In this document: positions 11,626 through 24,880 of the stretch, piece by piece
How the letters are laid out: every line of letters begins with the position of its first letter
Numbering within the stretch: position 1 is the stretch's first letter
Assembly: GCA_022451445.1 (NCBI GenBank)
Contig: JAKUSY010000005.1
Coordinates: 1 to 29,205, forward strand
Length of the DNA: 29,205 nucleotides
Source of the DNA: Planctomycetota bacterium
GTDB taxonomy: Bacteria > Planctomycetota > UBA8108
Direction of reading: 5' to 3'
The notes under the pieces: generated by a model
Databases searched by the model: none
What the model was told of the DNA's origin: nothing
The model's input: the letters and a program-made list of their open reading frames with translations, nothing else
Program-made: the position numbers and the translations under genes

Positions 11626-12378
11626 TCAGGCTCCGCTCTCCTCGTCGCTCTCCGCGGGGGGCTCGCCGTCTTCGTCCGGCGGCTCTGCGGCGGATCGGGC
11701 GGCTTCTTTCGCCTCTTTTTTCTCCTCCAGGACGCGCTTGATCTCCGTGCGGTAGCGCCGGGTTTTGTAGATTGCGTAGATAATGATCAGGGCGACCAGG
11801 CTCCCGATGACCAGCAGCACGATGGGCTTGTATTCTTCAAAGAGACCCATGGCTTTTTCGAGGGCATCCTTTGGAGTCTTGCCGGGCGCCAGCTTCTGGG
11901 CAGCCCACATACCGAAGAAAATCGAGATCGGGCAGGAGATGAGGGCTCCGATCAGGTCGAAAAAAATGAACTTTACCCAGCGCATTCCGTGCTGCCCGGC
12001 GTAGCCGTAGACGCCGATGCGAACCCCGGCAAGAAAACGCGCGAAGAAGACAGCCTTGTTGCCGTGTTTGGCGAAGTGCCGGTGGACCTTCTTATTGTTG
12101 ATCGCCCGGATGAACCAGCTGTCGGGAAAGCTCTGCCCCAGCTTCCTGCCGGTGAAAAAGATGATCGAATCGCCGATGAGGATGCCTGTTACGCAGACCG
12201 CCGAGGCGATCCAGAAATCGGCGAGGTGGAAGCCGACCACCACCCCGCTGCCGATCAGCGTGACCTCTTCGGGAATCGGAAGGCCGATCCCGCAGAGAAA
12301 GAGTATGCCGAACATGGCCCAGTACTGGTATTGCTCGAGCCAGGCGAGGATCTCTGTCGGTTCCAGTAAGGCAAACAT
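11626..12378 (-). CDS. DedA/VTT family membrane protein
   Basis: LCGIGLPIPEEVTLIGSG, GDSIIFFTGR, AVFFARFLAGVR and hydrophobic helices. Confidence 0.92.
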   Translation of the reverse strand: MFALLEPTEILAWLEQYQYWAMFGILFLCGIGLPIPEEVTLIGSGVVVGFHLADFWIASAVCVTGILIGDSIIFFTGRKLGQSFPDSWFIRAINNKKVHRHFAKHGNKAVFFARFLAGVRIGVYGYAGQHGMRWVKFIFFDLIGALISCPISIFFGMWAAQKLAPGKTPKDALEKAMGLFEEYKPIVLLVIGSLVALIIIYAIYKTRRYRTEIKRVLEEKKEAKEAARSAAEPPDEDGEPPAESDEESGA

Positions 12379-12489: not shown

Positions 12490-13011
12490 TCAGAACAGGG
12501 TTCCCACCGAGGGGCTCAGGTCGAGATCCGCCGGCACGCCCGGGAAGTGGTCGCGGATGAAATCGCCCTGGACATCGCGGGTCTTCCGGGAGAGCTGTCC
12601 CTGCAGGTCTTCACTGCATTTTTCGCACATGATGATCATGGGCAGCAGGAGGGACAGCTCCCGGCAGGCTCCGATGACCGTGAAATTCTCGAAGAGGGCC
12701 CTGGGAAAGCCGCAGAAGTGACAGTGGTCGGGCCCCTCGGTGGGCTTGAAGTTGCAGAGCATGAAGCCCTTCATGGCCTCGAGCGATTCCCGGGACATCT
12801 CCTTGGAGAGATCTTCGCCGCAGGCCTGGCAGATGGCCGTTTCGAAGATCACCTCCTTGTCCCGGTAGACCTTCTGGATCTCGTAGAGTCCCAGGTGTTC
12901 AAGATCCTTCTCGCAGATGGTGCAGTTTTTGAACGGGCCCTCCTCGGAGAACGAGTGCAGCTCTTCAGGCACCTCCGCGGCGCAGTCTTCGTTTGATGGA
13001 TCAGGTAACAC
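12490..13011 (-). CDS. Hypothetical protein with four CxxC motifs (probable metal-binding)
   Basis: CTIC, CQAC, CHFC and CEKC. GTG start at 13011 preceded by GGAG at 5 nt. Confidence 0.8.
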   Translation of the reverse strand: MLPDPSNEDCAAEVPEELHSFSEEGPFKNCTICEKDLEHLGLYEIQKVYRDKEVIFETAICQACGEDLSKEMSRESLEAMKGFMLCNFKPTEGPDHCHFCGFPRALFENFTVIGACRELSLLLPMIIMCEKCSEDLQGQLSRKTRDVQGDFIRDHFPGVPADLDLSPSVGTLF

Positions 13012-13117
13012 GGGTACTCCACGGAGCGCAACTGCGCCGGGAACCGTCCGCACTTCGCCAGGGGGCTGAAGTAAGGCGGTTCATCGACGAATTTTGCCCC
13101 GCAGTAATCTGCGGATA

Positions 13118-13199
13118 GTAGAATGCAAGCCGTTTAATTCAGGCCCGGAACGGGGAAATACCGTACTTTACCAGGCCCTCGGGAATTGTAGAATCAAGC
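13118..13199 (+). promoter_or_regulatory. Tandem -10-like elements GTAGAAT(G)CAAGC upstream of the TPR/FG-GAP gene
   Basis: GTAGAATGCAAGC at 13118-13130 and GTAGAATCAAGC at 13188-13199. The second has TTTACC 16 nt upstream. Confidence 0.4.
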
Positions 13200-13237
13200 G
13201 CCAGTGTCGGCAAAGTCTTTCTCCGAGGTAAAGATAA

Positions 13238-16200
13238 TTGAGCATCTCCGATCGTTTGTTTGAAGAGCCCGCGCGCTCGGCGCCCGCGCCCGGCAGGATG
13301 GCGGGAGCGCTGCTCCTGCTCCTCATCGCGGCCGCCGCATGGAGTTGCAGCCCGGGTTCCAGGGTTGGACCTGCCGAGGGTCTTCGCAGGATGGGCAGGG
13401 GGATCGGCCTGCTCGAACAATACGATTATTCAGGCGCCTACAAGATCTTCTCCGGGCTCTGCGAGAGCTTTCCCGCCTGGGAGGCGGCCTGGACCAACCG
13501 CGGCATAGCCGGTCTCAATCTCCAGGATGAGAGTAAGTGCGTGCCCAATATGAAGAAGGCGCTGGAGCTGAATCCCCGCAGCTCTCATGCGCTGCTGGTC
13601 CTCGGTATTCAGTACGAACACCTGCAGAGGACCGACGAGGCACTCGAGCTCTTCAGGAAGGTGGTGGAGCTCGATCCTGATGACCCGCATGGGCACTACT
13701 ATGTCGGCACCATCCTTGCTGACCGCGATGACAAGGAAGGGGCGGTGCGCCATCTTCGCCGCGCGCTCCAGCTGCAGCCATCCTTCGCCTCGGCCTGGTA
13801 CCGCATGGCGAACCTTCATCGCAGAGAAGAGAAAGACCTGCGGATCGGCATGCTCAACGAGTTCAAGCGTCTCAAGAAGGCCGGTGCCGGAATCCTGGTG
13901 GGACATAAGTACGGCGAAGGGGGAAGGTACAGCCTCGCGGTCAGGGACTCCCTGCCCCCGGGCTACACCGCCTCGCCCCCGGCGGAGGCCCCGGCGGCGT
14001 CCATCGGCGCCGGGCGCGAGATCAGCGGCGTTCCGCGGACCGTCCCGGCCCCGTCCGGAAGCCAGGCGGCGGGAATGGCTGTGGGTGATCTCGATGGAGA
14101 TGGATCGCTCGAGCTGATCCTCTGCGGGAGCGCGGCCGCCGATGGCGCCCAGGGCGCTCTCTCGATCTTCAATTACTCGGCGGCGGGAGATTACAGCCTC
14201 GCCCGCAGGTTGGCCTTCGATGCGAATCTCTGCTGTCTCGCCGACCTCGATGGAGACACCGATCTCGACCTGGTCGTTGCCGCCCCCGGCTCTCTCAGGT
14301 TCCTGCTCAACGATGGCAAGGGCGGCCTCGAGGAGGCCAGCGTCAAGGTGAAGTCCGGGCGCGACGGGGGCTTCCCCCTGCGCCTCTACGCCCTCGATGT
14401 CGACAGCGATTGGGATCTCGACATTATCTGCCTGCGCCAGTGGAAGGAAGCCGATGGCAAGGTCACCTCCCGGGTACAGGTGCTCAACAACGATCGCGAT
14501 GATCCCGCCGGCCTTGGCGGCTTCAGCGACATCGGCGCCGACTGCGGGCTGGAAGAATTCGATTTCGCCGTGGTGGAGCTCGCCGTGGTGGATCTCGATG
14601 GCGATGTCGATCTCGACCTCGCCGTTTTCGACGAACGCGGCGGCGCCAGGTTTTTCTCGAACCATCGCGCCTGGAAGTTCGCGGAGGTCAAGCAGGCCGC
14701 GGGACTCTCTGCCGCGGGAATCGTGAGCGTTACCTCGGGGGATCTCGACGGAGACGGAGATGAGGACCTTGTCGCCTTCTGCGGCGACAGCCTCCGCCTC
14801 CTGCGCAACGATGGCCTGCTGCGTTTTACCCTGGACAGGGATTTCTCCAGCCGCTACGGAGCGCTTGGCGGGACCGGCGGGACGCTCTTTGATTTCGATG
14901 GAGACCTGGCCCTCGAGCTCCTGGTCATCGACGCGAAACCTGCCGGTGATGCGAAAGGAGCCGTCCTGGTCTCTCCCGGTAAAGAGACCAGGCGATTCGA
15001 ACTTGGACGCAAGACCCGGGGGGGCGCGGTGAGCGTCCTGGCCGGCTGCATGGGAATCGACGGGGGAGTCGAGCTGGTCGTGGCGGACACGGCCGGGGCG
15101 ACCACCGCTCACGCTCTCGAGATCCCCGGAACGTGGATCGGTCTCGAGCTCACCGGCCCTCTTCGCGAGGAGGTGAAGCCCGACGCCGAGCGGTCCAATC
15201 CCGCCGCCCTGGGGGCGAGCGTCGAGGTGCGTTCCGGAACCCGGGTGGCGAGGCGGCAGCTCAACGGCTCTACCGGCGGCACGGCGCGCGCGGCGGCGCG
15301 TTTTTTCTGTGGTCTCGGCGGCGCTCCGGCCGCTGACACGGTTCGTATTCTCTGGCCCGATGGTATTCTCCAGAGCGAGCTCGGGCTGGTGTCCGGAAAG
15401 ATTCACGAGATCAAGGAGAAGGAGCGCAAGCCGACCTCCTGCCCGGTGCTTTTCAGCTGGAATGGAGACTCCTTTGAATTTGTCGCTGATTTCCTCGGGG
15501 TCGGGGGACTCGGGTATTTCGAGGCCCCCGGGCGCTACAGCGCCCCGGATCCGACCGAGCTGCTTTGGATCCCGAGACTCGAGGCGCGCGAGAACGCAGA
15601 GGCTGGAGCTTCCTACGAGCTGCGGGTGCTCGAGCCCCTCGAGGAGTGCACCTACCTCGACAGCGCCGCGCTCGTGGCAGTCGATCATCCCGAGGGTACG
15701 ACGGTCCTGCCCAACGAGATGTTCGCCATTCTCGGCCCGGCTCCGGGCTACGGGCTCCTCTCCTTTGAGGAGAAGCTCCACCCGCTGAAGGCGATTGACC
15801 AGGATGGAGCGGATATGACCTCGCGCGTACAGAAGCTCGACGCGGCCTACGCTCCTGAGCTCAAGCCCGACAGGAGGTTCATGGGAGTGCTCGAGAAGCC
15901 GCAGGCCGTCGAGCTCGAGTTTCCCGCCTCGCTCGATGAGCTCATTCGCTCCGATGCTCCCGGCCGGCCGGTTCTTTTTCTCTACGGCTATATCGAGTAC
16001 GGCTATTCGACGACGAACTTCTCCGCCTCGCAGGCGGGCTTCGTTCCCATGGCCCCGAGCTTCCGCGTCGAGCGCGATGGATAGTGGGAGACCCTCCGCG
16101 AAGAGTGGGGATTCCCGGCGGGCTATCCGCGCTGGATGAGCGTCGATCTCGCCGACCTCCTGCGCCCGGGAGACCGCCGGCTGAAGATCGACACCAACCT

Positions 16201-16777
16201 CGAGATCGCCTGGGACGAGGTCTTCATCGCCCGGGCCCGGGATGTCGATCTCAGGGGGGCCGGGGATGAGAAGGTCACGGTGCGCCAGCTGAAGGCCGAC
16301 CGGGCCCACCTGCACTACCGCGGCTTCCCGATCGATCCCGCTCCCGGGGAGGAGGTCGAGGGCTTTCTCTACAAGGAGTTCGCCGAGTGGACTCATTACA
16401 AGGTCATGCCGGGCAGCTATACCCGTTTCGGCGATGTCCGCCCCCTGCTCGAAGAGGATGACGGGCGATTCGTGATCTTCGGGCCCGGCGATGAGATTGA
16501 ATTCTCCTTCAGGGCCGATCGTCTGGGCGAACTGGCCCCCGGTGGACGCCGGACCTTCTTCTGGAAGAGCGGTGGCTATTGCAAGGACATGGACTTCTAT
16601 ACCGGGCATGGTGATGGTGTGGCGCCCCTTCCCTTCGCCGGCATGAAGTCCTATCCCTACGCCGAGGGCGAGAGCTACCCGGCTGATCCGGCCCTCGAGC
16701 GCTACGCGAGGGAGTGGAACACCCGGAAGATCGAGGGTGACCTGCGAACCCCGATCTCAGCGGTCGTCGGAGATTGA
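13238..16777 (+). CDS. TPR + FG-GAP + ASPIC/UnbV (CRTAC1-like) probable lipoprotein, 1179 aa if read through the in-frame TAG at 16082-16084
   Basis: Lipobox-like AAWSC, TPR helices, FG-GAP repeats, SNPAALGASVEV..VRILWPDG (ASPIC/UnbV) and TSCPVLFSWNG. ORFs 13238-16084 and 16136-16777 share a frame and join as RVERDG*WETLREEWGFPAGYPRWMSVDL. The start could alternatively be ATG 13298. Confidence 0.85.
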
Positions 16778-16781
16778 TCCC

Positions 16782-17135
16782 GTGCGCTTGTTGCCGCTCC
16801 TGCCGCTGCTCTGCCTGCTCTGTTCCTGCGGCGCGGGGTCGACCGGGGTGTCGTATACATCGGTAAGCGGGATCTTCAAAAGCAACTGCGTCTCCTGCCA
16901 CGGGGCGAAGGAGCCGGAGTCGGAGCTTCGGCTCGACAGCCTTGGGGGAATCCTTACCGGCGGCAAGAGCGGGCCGGCCGTCGTCCCGGGCGATGCCGAT
17001 TCGAGCATCCTCATCAGCGCGGTGGAAGACAGCGGCCTGGTCACGAGGATGCCGCCCGAAGACGATGCCCCGGCTCTCGATGCCGCCTCGCTCGGTCTCC
17101 TGCGCCGATGGGTCCAGGCTGGAGCGAAACCGTAG
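16782..17135 (+). CDS. Planctomycete-type cytochrome c domain lipoprotein
   Basis: CVSCHG heme motif, LRLDS, GGKSGPAVVPGDADSS, RMPP and WVQAGA. Lipobox LCSC. GGAG lies 9 nt before GTG 16782. Confidence 0.88.
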   Translation: MRLLPLLPLLCLLCSCGAGSTGVSYTSVSGIFKSNCVSCHGAKEPESELRLDSLGGILTGGKSGPAVVPGDADSSILISAVEDSGLVTRMPPEDDAPALDAASLGLLRRWVQAGAKP

Positions 17136-17271: not shown

Positions 17272-18516
17272 ATGATGAACCAGGCCAGCCTGGAAATAGA
17301 GGTAGAGAAGACCGCCGAGGGGCGGCGGGCTCTCATCAGGTTTCGCCCGGACCTGAAGCGGCATGGCGGCCAGAGGGCCGACGTAAAGCTGGTTCTCTTC
17401 TGCAAGGTCGACCATTCCAATCCCATCAATAAAAAGGTCGAGCTGCTGAGCGAGAGCTTCAAGGTCAGCAAACCGCTGCACACCCTGCGCTACAAATGCC
17501 CACGGAGGCTCTTCACCTACGAGGGGAACTGGATCCGGCTTTATGCGCGAGTCTCGATTCTCATCGGAGATGACCATCTATCGAAGAAGTTCGAGGCGCC
17601 CCTGGAGCTCGGCAACATCCACCTGAGCGAAGATATTGACGAGACGATCAATCCGCCCGACGAACAGGTTCTCGTGAAAAACCTATTCATGATTCCAGCC
17701 GAGCGCAAGTCCGTGCTTCTGGCGCTCTGGGGGGGCTGTCTGGTTTTTCTTTTCCTGACGGAACGTTTTATCAGGAGCTCGCTCCTCACTATGAGCCGCG
17801 AGGTATTCGAGCTCGGGCTCATCTTCCTGCTTGGTCCCGCGTGCGGCCTCTTGTATTTCGCCTGGAAAAAAACCAAGGCTTACTGGAAAGCGCCGGACCT
17901 TGGGCTGCATTTCAATATCCCGGAGGGACTGTCGAGGGGCTCCCGGAGCAAGGCGAAGATCAATCGCCAGTCACGCCTCCTGGTTTCCGACTGGATATCG
18001 GGTAAGGCGGCGATGGATCTCGATGGCGTGAGGCTGAGGGTGGTGGCGGGGAACATCGAGAGGGGCCCGTGCCACGAGCTGGAGGGCAGCATGACTTCAG
18101 ACGCCAAGCTGGTGAAAAAGGACGTTTCCGTCGTTACTCGGGCGATGGTTCTCTACGACAAGACGATCGAGCGTCTTCCGGCCGGCACGGAGTTCGCGGA
18201 GTATTTCCGGGACCCGCTGGATTTCGAGCCGGTTTTCACGGATCTCTACCCACCCGACCTGGTGGCCACCAGGGGGTTCGGGGGCCGCCTCTCCCTGAGC
18301 TCAACGCACGGCCTGGGCTATTACCTCGAGTTCCAGCTGCTACACCCCGACGTGGCTGTCCTCTAGTACGAGGTGGAGTCGAGCTATTTCGATCCGACCG
18401 CTTTTTTCAGCGAGCCGGCTTCCGCCCCTCCCGCCTCGCCTCTGGGGGAGAGCGGGAGCTCCGGGGGGGAGGAGACCGGGGCGGATTCGCCGCCTCCGCC
18501 CCCTCCAGGCGGCTAG
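17272..18516 (+). CDS. Hypothetical membrane protein (2 TM), 414 aa if read through the TAG at 18364-18366, otherwise 364 aa ending at 18366
   Basis: Long ORF with two hydrophobic helices. After the TAG the frame continues YEVESSYFDPTAFFSEPAS...PPPPPPGG (49 codons) to a second TAG at 18514. Confidence 0.7.
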
Positions 18517-18605: not shown

Positions 18606-19871
18606 ATGAAACCACCAGGCCGGTACTATCGATGCGCGTTCGCTGCTTGCGGTCTCCTGCTGGCCTGCCTGCCGGCCGCGGCCGATGAATGGACGCGCTT
18701 TCGCGGCCCCAACGGTTCCGGCCTGAGCGATGCGAAGACCGTTCCGGCGCAGTGGAAGGAGAGCGACTTCAACTGGAAGATCGACCTGCCCGGCAAGGGG
18801 AATTCCTCCCCGGTCGTCTGGGACGAGCTGGTCTTCGTGACGGCGGCCGACAATGACGCCGGAACGAGGACCCTCCTGGCGATCAACACCGCGGACGGCA
18901 AGACGCGGTGGAAGAAGAATTTTCCCTACGCGACCTACCGCAAGCATCGAAACAACTCCTACGCATCCAATACCCCGGCGACAGACGCGGAGCGGGTCTA
19001 CGTTCTCTGGCAGTCGAAGAAGGAATCCCGGCTGGTAGCGATCGATCACGAGGGCAAGGAGAGCTGGCGCTACGAGCTCGGCCCCTACCTGCACGGCCAG
19101 GGCGGCGGCACCTCCCCGATCGTATTTGAGGACCTGGTGGTCATCTCCAACGATCACAAGAAGGGCAGCTTCCTGCTGGCGGTCGACCGCGCCACGGGCA
19201 GGGAGCGCTGGAAGCTCCCGCGCGCGGGTAAGCGGGCCTGCTATTCAACCCCCTGTGTCTTCAGCGCGCCGGGCCGTCCGACGGAGATTGTCTTCGTGCA
19301 CTGCTTCGAGGGAATCGTCGGGGTCGATCCGAAGCTCGGCAGGCAGAACTGGATGATCGATGTCTTCGGCACCTTTCCCCAGAGAGCCGTGGGTTCGCCC
19401 GTGGTCTGGAAGGACCTGGTGGTTGCCAACTCCGGGGCTCTCAATGGTGGCAAGAACGCTGTCGTGGTCCGTCCCTCGACCAGCGGAAAAAAGCACGGCG
19501 TGAAGGAGGTCTACAGGATCTCGCGTTCGGCGCCGCACGTTCCAAGCCCGCTGGTCTTCGACGGCAGGCTCTTTCTGTGGAGCGACCTGGGGGTCGTCAC
19601 CTGCGCCAGGGTGGAGACAGGGTAGGTGATCTGGCAGAAGAGGGCCGGCGGCGGCGGTAATTTTCACGGCTCGCCGGTCTGTGTCGATGGGCGCCTCTTC
19701 TGCGCCGACGACAAGGGCACTGTCGTCGTTCTGTCGGCCTCTGAGAAGTTCGAGGTGCTGGGAAAAAACGAGCTTGCCGACACCTGCCGCTCGACCCCCG
19801 CGGTGAGCGGCGGACGAATGTACGTGCGCACCGAGAGCCGGCTGTTCTCGGTGGGAGGGAAGAAAGAGTAG
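18606..19871 (+). CDS. PQQ-binding-like beta-propeller protein (BamB-like, planctomycete type), 421 aa if read through the TAG at 19623-19625
   Basis: Signal peptide followed by DEWTRFRGPNGSG, repeated SSPVV/SPIVF/STP motifs and the family C-terminus STPAVSGGRMYVRTESRLFSVG. The junction VETG*VIWQKR lies inside a propeller blade. Confidence 0.88.
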
Positions 19872-23524: not shown

Positions 23525-24880
23525 ATGAGCGAAATGACCGACAATAGCCGCCTCGCCGAGGTTGAGAGCATCATCGAAAAGTATCCCGATGTGCCGCCTG
23601 AGGCCGTCTTCAAGGAAGACCTGCTCAGGCTGGGGGTCAGCTTTTCCGAGGATGCCCTCAGGCTCTGTGGTGGGTTCAAGCCCTAGTCTTATTTCTTCTT
23701 CAGCTTGGACCTGCAGCCCTTCAAGGAGCTCGAGCAGGGGGAAAACCTGAGGGTCCCGGAGGAGCTCTCTCTCGTGGGCGGCCCCCGGAATTTCAGGCGC
23801 ACTATCGTGAGTGTCCGGATTTATCCCGACTCACCCTACCGCGTCGATATCGTCGAGGGGAAGCTGGCACTGCTAGTGGAGGGGGAACTGGTCTGTGATA
23901 TCGAGCTGCAGGATATTCCGGAGTATTACCGCCGAGATCTGCGAAGCGGCAAGACCATCACCGAGATCGCTCCGACCATCGAGTGGGGCTCCCTTGTCTA
24001 CCTGACGGTCTACCGTAAATGCCAGTATTTCGGCTTCAAGGAGGAGTGCCAGTTCTGCGACATCAACGAGAATGTTCGCCAGCAGAAGGAGGCCGGCCGG
24101 CCCTACGATACGGTGAAGGCGGTCGAGGAGGTGGTGGAGGCCCTCGAGATTATCGATGAGACGGATGTCGAGAAACGAACCCGGGCCTACACCATCACAG
24201 GGGGGAGCATCACCCGCCATCTGAGAGGGCAGGACGAGGCCACCTTCTACGAGGCCTATGCCCGGGCGATCAATTCTCGTTTTCCGGGACGCTGGATTTC
24301 CAAGATGGTGGTCCAGGCGCTCCCGCTCGATGATGTCCGGCGGTTTCGGGATGCGGGAGTCCAGATCTACCATCCAAACTACGAGGTCTGGGATAGGCGC
24401 CTCTTTTCGATCATCTGTCCGGGCAAGGAAGACTACGTGGGCCGCGACGAATGGATGAAGCGCATCGTGGCTGCGGCGGAGGTCTTCGGCCCATCCCAGG
24501 TTATTCCGAATTTCGTCGCCGGAGTCGAGATGGCGGCTCCTCACGGTTTTTCAAGGATCGAGGACGCGCTCGCCTCCACCGGTGAGGGACTCGACTACTT
24601 CATGTCGAGGGGAATTACCCCCCGCTTCACGGTCTGGTGCCCCGAGCCTCTGAGCGTCCTCGGCAGGGACCAGGGGGCGGCTCCGCTGGAATACCACGTC
24701 GGTCTGCTGCGGCTCTGGAGAGAGACCCTGCTGCGCTACAACCTTCCGGCGCCGCCGGGTTACGGGCTGCCGGGCGTCGGCAACGCGGTCTTCTCGGTAA
24801 GCTCCTTCATGGATGCCCTACCGGGCGATCTCGAGGTCGCCCGGCTTCCCGGCGAGTCCGAGGTCGCGGCGAACAGCTGA
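23525..24880 (+). CDS. Radical SAM protein with CX8CX2C motif, 451 aa if read through the TAG at 23684-23686
   Basis: RKCQYFGFKEECQFCDIN, YTITGGS, YHPNYEVWD and PNFVAGVE. An upstream 53-codon in-frame segment (MSEMTDN...KYPDVPPEAVFKEDLLRLG...FKP*SYFFFSLD) is absent from the ORF track. Confidence 0.88.

Follow-up and report, generated by a model that had tools for sequence, protein, structure and literature searches.

The closest described counterparts of the lesion reported here are the internal-stop 'pseudogenes' of draft genomes and metagenome-assembled genomes (MAGs), annotated as 'internal stop' by NCBI PGAP. Like the stop studied here, these are single-base, assembly-private changes in an otherwise conserved frame, and like it they are accompanied by others in the same assembly, genes expected to be essential included, with neither indels nor recoding machinery. 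The present case departs from the usual one in the number of the lesions (about 100 in 3.9 Mb, by a rough estimate), in their local density (four in a 29-kb contig) and in their frequent position within small clusters of private substitutions. Moreover, unlike the internal-stop pseudogenes of PGAP, the two halves of the interrupted gene are annotated as two proteins in the public record. As to the gene itself, its nearest relatives are the CRTAC1/ASPIC-UnbV proteins, which appear in Planctomycetota records under the names 'CRTAC1 family protein' and 'FG-GAP-like repeat-containing protein'. The TPR-containing N-terminus, the FG-GAP repeats, the UnbV_ASPIC domain and the long C-terminal region are the same, and there are orthologues of 1159 aa with 95-99% identity, whereas the copy examined here is interrupted at codon 929.

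Two further systems offer points of comparison for an in-frame TAG. Escherichia coli has amber suppressors of the supF/supE type, and ochre suppressors derived from lysT. Suppression by mutant tRNAs would permit in-frame TAG and TAA codons in essential genes, and Lys is often the residue replaced here; by contrast with such systems, no suppressor tRNA was found, RF1 is intact, the stops are unshared and five kinds of residue are replaced. With pyrrolysine decoding (pylTSBCD) the locus shares a UAG that stands in frame in place of Lys, but neither pylS nor pylT was found and the TAG is not conserved. We know of no use of pyrrolysine in this gene family.

The window, that is, the whole stretch of DNA analysed, is the entire contig C445 of 29,205 bp. 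It belongs to a MAG, G000, of 3.9 Mb in 779 contigs (N50 6.2 kb, completeness 83.7%, contamination 1.4%), with a GC3 of about 0.8. On the plus strand, an ORF at 13238..16084 encodes 948 aa from a TTG codon and is closed by the TAG at 16082-16084. A second ORF, of 213 aa, follows in the same frame from ATG 16136 (16136..16777). In the public NCBI record these halves are annotated as separate proteins, P0125 (948 aa) and P0124 (213 aa). The sequence-only reading had placed the TAG at codon 949 of a 1179-aa frame, which we verified; this numbering counts from TTG 13238. The homologues use the start ATG 13298, not the upstream TTG, and counted from there the TAG is codon 929 of 1159, in a gene spanning 13298..16777 (+). 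The same reading had remarked that no Shine-Dalgarno sequence precedes ATG 16136, and an AGGAGG-like motif is indeed absent there, which would count only if this phylum uses one. Between the TAG and this ATG lie 17 codons (16085..16135, +), which read WETLREEWGFPAGYPRW.

When the two halves were joined across the stop, the protein matched FG-GAP_3 (2.1e-24, in three stretches), FG-GAP (6.9e-07) and UnbV_ASPIC (3.8e-08) in Pfam, all above the gathering scores, and TPR repeats were also found. On the plus strand, with residue numbers of P0001, the TPR region lies at 13400..13837 (residues 55-200), the FG-GAP and FG-GAP_3 repeat matches, assigned to a propeller, at 14237..14773 (residues 334-512) and the UnbV_ASPIC domain at 15206..15376 (residues 657-713). 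They are followed at 15395..16774 by some 460 aa of conserved C-terminal sequence, for which there is no Pfam model and which is predicted to be mostly beta. FG-GAP repeats followed by UnbV_ASPIC, the arrangement typical of the family, are present on the joined protein; the family's single chain including the C-terminal WGFPAGYPRWM block depends on read-through or reversion of the TAG. These matches bear out the TPR/FG-GAP/ASPIC-UnbV domains of the label first given to the gene. Its designation as a lipoprotein was not established: the N-terminus, MAGALLLLLIAAAAWSC, is hydrophobic and contains a Cys (AAAWSC), and inspected by eye as sequence AWSC makes a poor lipobox. The CRTAC1-like protein is probably secreted or surface-exposed.

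Whether the two ORFs form one protein, as had been proposed, was examined in a homologue search with residues 720-1179 of the joined protein as the query. It matched 811 homologues. The best 120 of the 811 are single chains which span 91-100% of the query and therefore cross the position of the TAG, and nearly all of these 120 are 1100-1250 aa long, with the same Pfam make-up. The continuous match across the stop, which the earlier proposal had called for, was thus obtained, and the finding that it had named as fatal, homologues routinely split into two genes at this point, did not appear: none of the 15 aligned homologues is split there, and in no homologue examined does the 213-aa ORF stand as an independent gene. 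In the column of the TAG, the four closest homologues have K, and those farther out have R, E, Q or T. Immediately after it comes the nearly invariant WGFPAGYPRWM block, in which all 15 homologues have the same W, G, P, G, P, R and M; the GFPAG motif noted earlier in the 17 codons forms part of this block, and the C-terminal region has no better conserved motif than the one that these codons encode. Intact orthologues of 1159 aa were found at 99.2-99.3% identity (P0128, P0134 and P0135) and at 95% over the whole protein (P0002). The last 460 residues of an intact orthologue were modelled with confidence (mean pLDDT 82.5, pTM 0.86), and the model is mostly beta. The stop maps to its residue 230, where a predicted strand of a beta-hairpin begins, so that truncation at this point would cut the modelled fold in half. 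A fold search with this region gave no convincing match among solved structures (query-normalised TM-score of 0.2 or less). Judged from these alignments, the assignment of both ORFs to one conserved gene, which would encode a large CRTAC1-like protein, is fully supported. Within the CRTAC1-like FG-GAP/ASPIC family the gene is unremarkable, and its annotation as the two proteins P0125 and P0124 is an artefact of the stop.

The codon at 16082 was compared with that of the same and related strains. Logan contigs from four runs, unrelated marine or cold-seep metagenomes of four different studies, cover positions 13000-17000 at about 99.4-99.5% identity. All four have A at 16082 and hence the Lys codon AAG, with the reservation that Logan contigs drop rare variants and can hide minor alleles. 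The best-matching runs, which share 0.81-0.89 of the words of the window, carry AAG. The same codon is present in three ENA assemblies of this strain group from other samples (L094, L095 and L096, 98.8-99.4% identical to the window), which carry intact genes of 1159, 414 and 421 aa. In the lineage that is 94-95% identical (L001-L004 and G006), as in other genomes of the genus, the site reads AAA. The 31-mers bearing the TAG occur in no listed run, a weak result given that only two words were sampled. By this comparison, the TAG is a private A-to-T change in the Lys codon AAG; it lies one step from the codon of the near-identical genomes and occurs in no other assembly. Two more private changes are found downstream of it within the gene, and both are synonymous.

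The TAG at 16082 is accompanied by three others on the plus strand of the window. A second private in-frame TAG (18364..18366) interrupts a 414-aa gene at 17272-18516 where relatives have AAG for Lys, with two more private changes within 13 nt. A third (19623..19625) lies in a PQQ-like propeller gene at 18606-19871 where relatives have GAG for Glu, with two more within 26 nt. The strain that is 99.4% identical reads AAG at 18364 and GAG at 19623, and the private changes form the clusters 18352/18359/18364 and 19623/19628/19648. The fourth TAG (23684..23686) falls near the N-terminus of a putative radical SAM gene, and five relatives of the same genus have AAG for Lys. Comparison of the window with the 99.4% strain, polarised with outgroups, gave 15 derived changes in 8.5 kb (seven synonymous, five missense and three nonsense) and no indels. 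The nonsense share, three of 15, compares with about 3% expected for random changes, and the four nonsense changes in 29 kb with about 0.5-0.9 predicted from the genome-wide rate. This excess may reflect uneven noise, together with the fact that the window had been flagged for these very TAGs.

Stops of the same kind were sought throughout the MAG by scanning for same-frame coding segments parted by one stop and checking the candidates with Pfam. In-frame TAGs were found inside the Pfam domains of AccC (CPSase_L_D2), HemA (Shikimate_DH), a Prc-like protease (PDZ) and a DUF1592 protein; AccC and HemA have one match each in G000 and are single-copy. In-frame TAAs were found inside matches to Iso_dh, HATPase_c (a histidine kinase) and Mala_s_1-like. 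More than one type of stop is present elsewhere in the MAG, among other places in genes expected to be essential. The ancestral codons at 11 TAG/TAA sites, read from the sister genome G006 and others, were AAG (three sites), AAG or AAA (one), GAG (two), GAA (two), TAT, CAG and TTG. Five kinds of residue (K, E, Y, Q and L) have been replaced at these sites, each one base from a stop. All but one of the 11 changes are transversions, an argument that is weak alone because the variants common to three independent assemblies, and thus real, are also rich in transversions (nine of 16). Private changes again lie close by: an Arg-to-Pro change 5 nt upstream of the prc TAG, and three no farther than 10 nt from that of DUF1592. 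A quasi-palindrome template switch was considered as the source of the clustered changes and discarded, as the derived sequences are no more self-complementary than the ancestral ones.

Under strict selection the scan gave 34 candidate TAGs and 11 TAAs. Random single-base substitution acting on the codon usage of G000 predicts 59% TAG, 22% TAA and 19% TGA, and the apparent bias towards TAG is the random nonsense expectation for a GC3-rich genome, not amber-specific biology. A TAG-specific phenomenon had been suggested by a roughly two-fold excess of TAG among same-frame ORF pairs, but TAA also occurs inside Pfam domains. The in-frame TGAs found in domains are mostly selenocysteine sites (UxxC thioredoxin-like, peroxiredoxin-like, glutathione peroxidase and deiodinase-like proteins), a tRNA-Sec is present in G000, and the in-frame TGAs are largely accounted for by the selenoproteins together with this tRNA. 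Over 23 kb of polarised sequence, 311 derived changes fall to the G000 lineage, 125 of them transversions and 83 clustered, against 218 in G006 (56 transversions, 35 clustered), a comparison biased by the choice of the loci for their stops in G000. Internal duplicate contigs, another possible gauge of error, gave no useful overlaps in the MAG. Rough scaling puts the in-frame stops of the 3.9-Mb genome at about 70-100 TAGs and about 25 TAAs, which implies about one unselected substitution per 1000 bases, near the whole private divergence.

We also examined whether the cell has the means to decode a TAG. In G000, 83.7% complete, there was no match to the PylS model TIGR02367, and none of the 35 tRNAs found has a CUA or UUA anticodon. 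A 'tRNA-Pyl' called by ARAGORN under relaxed settings at C265:1792-1884 was rejected: Rfam shows no tRNA there at E<=1, and the call lies inside an open frame. The RF1 gene (prfA) scores 463 bits, above the cut-off, with an open frame and both the GGQ and the PxT motifs, and RF2 is also present and intact. TAG is in regular use as a terminator: it closes three neighbouring genes, here and in the relative L001, and 259 of 1392 long coding-like ORFs in G000 end in it. The base at +4 of the candidate in-frame TAGs is A in 11, C in nine, G in seven and T in seven, and no common +4 or -1 context emerged among them. A 'TAGT' context that occurs three times in the window fails genome-wide, and the rule that only plus-strand genes carry stops holds in the window but is broken by minus-strand genes on other contigs. 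Programmed read-through would entail conservation of the stop and its context, and all orthologues have a sense codon at this site. Reassignment of TAG was likewise rejected: RF1 is intact, TAG is still a terminal stop, and the in-frame stops are private and replace five kinds of residue. A Lys-specific suppressor would predict Lys at most sites, but K, E, Y, Q and L have all been replaced, and two clear TAA sites were Glu. None of the ten literature hits listed reports amber read-through in Planctomycetes. These results lend no support to reassignment or to a dedicated recoding system. The read-through peptide across the TAG that the sequence-only reading implied goes unsupported, since private TAG and TAA stops of this sort occur in many places of the MAG; to this are added the private nature of the TAG itself, the intact RF1 and the failure to find a suppressor tRNA or PylS.

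How, then, is the TAG to be understood? It could mark a natural pair of genes, whose 948-aa and 213-aa products would be synthesised as separate proteins and cooperate. The public record does annotate two proteins, and an ATG does sit 17 codons downstream of the TAG. However, none of the homologues examined is split there, near-identical strains have one ORF, the 17 codons left untranslated would hold the most conserved motif, and the cut would fall inside the modelled beta-hairpin; we regard such an arrangement as highly improbable. Pyrrolysine, or another programmed recoding at TAG 16082, agrees with the identity of the codon and of the lysine that it replaces, but PylS and tRNA-Pyl were not found in this 84%-complete MAG, the site varies among homologues (K, R, E, Q and T), and TAG is absent from all the relatives examined, which leaves this explanation with a negligible probability, the smallest of any considered here. 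Translation of TAG and TAA by an amber or ochre suppressor tRNA or through unusually leaky termination, with the full 1159-aa protein being made, would make sense of in-frame stops in genes expected to be essential. Four of the 11 sites replace Lys and four replace Glu, and with 83.7% completeness and 35 tRNAs a suppressor gene could be absent from the assembly. Nevertheless, the search for a tRNA with a CUA or UUA anticodon was negative, RF1 is intact, TAG still ends neighbouring genes, and every stop that was checked is private to the assembly, none being common even to strains 99.4% identical. The five kinds of residue have been replaced in random-substitution proportions, and neutral stops would not explain the clustering with other private changes. 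We therefore hold such translation to be improbable. Its more specific form, in which an amber/ochre suppressor or unusually weak UAG/UAA termination would let fresh nonsense changes (in accC, hemA and the CRTAC1-like gene) be read through and persist, is a shade less probable still.

There remains the choice between an allele that is genuine and dead and a base that is wrong. Were the base real, translation would end at the TAG, after residue 928, and 230 residues would be lost from the middle of a beta-rich fold; the gene would be a fresh pseudogene or would give a truncated, probably misfolded product. The strain of the window is a distinct lineage, with some 15 derived changes in 8.5 kb; these include synonymous ones, and some private changes are therefore real. 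Loss is common among large accessory surface proteins, and a very recent event would agree with the two private changes beyond the TAG being synonymous. On the other hand, private stops are also present in the single-copy accC and hemA and in the Iso_dh gene, where a viable cell should not tolerate nulls. Three consecutive genes each have their own stop, which inactivation would not need, and the allele is seen in no other assembly or listed run. A genuine nonsense allele is accordingly a possibility that we take seriously while considering it unlikely. The stops behave like unselected random substitutions, and base-level assembly noise in a low-quality MAG is therefore their likeliest cause. 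The first base of the Lys codon AAG reads T in the G000 assembly alone, yielding TAG, and by this account the stop at 16082 would belong to a set of about 100 stray TAG and TAA codons that interrupt frames in this fragmented MAG of short contigs. The noise could come, for example, from erroneous reads carried into low-coverage contigs, and its restriction to substitutions would fit short-read data assembled at low depth. We infer that this lesion, private to the assembly, most probably stems from a sequence or assembly error and not from a true allele, a conclusion that we hold with somewhat better than even confidence. Error is in our judgement likelier than a genuine dead allele, and tolerated read-through ranks below both.

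Were the stops real and translated, a free-living marine bacterium would offer a rare example of nonsense suppression in nature, a direction in which no test made here points. The case serves chiefly as a caution: in the public record a single conserved gene appears as two 'proteins' (948 and 213 aa). In a MAG that represents its species, private stops of this kind can be mistaken for amber recoding, for pseudogenisation or for gene fission. Surveys of gene content, pseudogenes or genetic codes should treat the internal stops of G000 as noise until reads confirm them.

Besides the TAG in the CRTAC1-like gene, the window carries three further private in-frame TAGs, all on the plus strand: at 18364-18366 in a gene for a 414-aa membrane protein (AAG in the relatives), at 19623-19625 in a PQQ-like propeller gene (GAG in the relatives), and at 23684-23686 in a gene that the sequence-only reading had termed radical SAM (AAG in the relatives). 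Small clusters of additional private substitutions surround two of these three codons. Elsewhere in G000, the genome that holds the window, in-frame TAGs interrupt accC on contig C623 (L017), hemA on C667 (L021), prc on C24 (L006) and a DUF1592 gene on C300 (L011), and in-frame TAAs interrupt an Iso_dh gene on C379 (L057), a histidine kinase gene on C406 (L056) and a Mala_s_1-like gene on C765 (L055). All seven interruptions were private to G000 wherever relatives were comparable. An in-frame TGA was also observed on C307 (L024), at residue 159, within an esterase/alpha-beta-hydrolase match. Its context is devoid of Cys-like redox character, and this TGA is probably a random nonsense lesion, like the TAG and TAA ones of this genome.

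One of these contigs, C300 (L108), is 97% identical to C34 (L109) of the same-genus genome G004, against only 78-90% for other G000 loci compared with G004. C300 may have been mis-binned or recently transferred. At C36:6323 and at C506:2507 (minus strand), long ORFs end in TAG, and an identical nine-base string, ATCTACACC, follows both stops. Pfam scanning, applied to the C36 copy only, detected a dockerin-type C-terminal segment there. The two sites may belong to copies of one C-terminal module or have a downstream element in common.

In the VTT-domain gene (11626-12378, minus strand), the window has GAG where L001, a 114-kb contig from a 94-95% identical lineage, has the terminal TAG, and the gene is four codons longer (250 aa vs 246 aa). 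Since it is also called as 250 aa in L096, a contig of the near-identical common strain, this gene end looks like natural stop-codon drift. For window gene 17272-18516, the orthologue in L001 (9905-11151) is split into two gene calls, of 173 and 245 aa and with one base of difference in length, but forms a single 415-aa gene in the relative stretches L002 and L003; the split is a frameshift in the assembly of L001. A 1059-codon open frame runs antisense to the CRTAC1-like gene (13430-16609, minus strand); it is regarded as a consequence of high GC content rather than a gene.

G000 encodes a tRNA-Sec (C212:7676-7773). Its selenoprotein set comprises a thioredoxin-like protein (W-U-G-W-C) on C182 (L065), a peroxiredoxin/AhpC-like protein (U-G-P-C) on C257 (L067), a glutathione peroxidase (NVAS-U-G) on C9 (L069) and a deiodinase-like protein (SYT-U-PPF) on C556 (L040). 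An in-frame TGA is common to two paralogues of the FG-GAP/ASPIC family, on C758 (L034) and C12 (L041). In both stretches examined it is residue 251, lies after the FG-GAP repeats and before the UnbV_ASPIC domain, and has the same flanking sequence (DL-TGA-SFFWRQVVSR). Given the tRNA-Sec of G000, the two paralogues are candidate selenocysteine-containing CRTAC1-like proteins.
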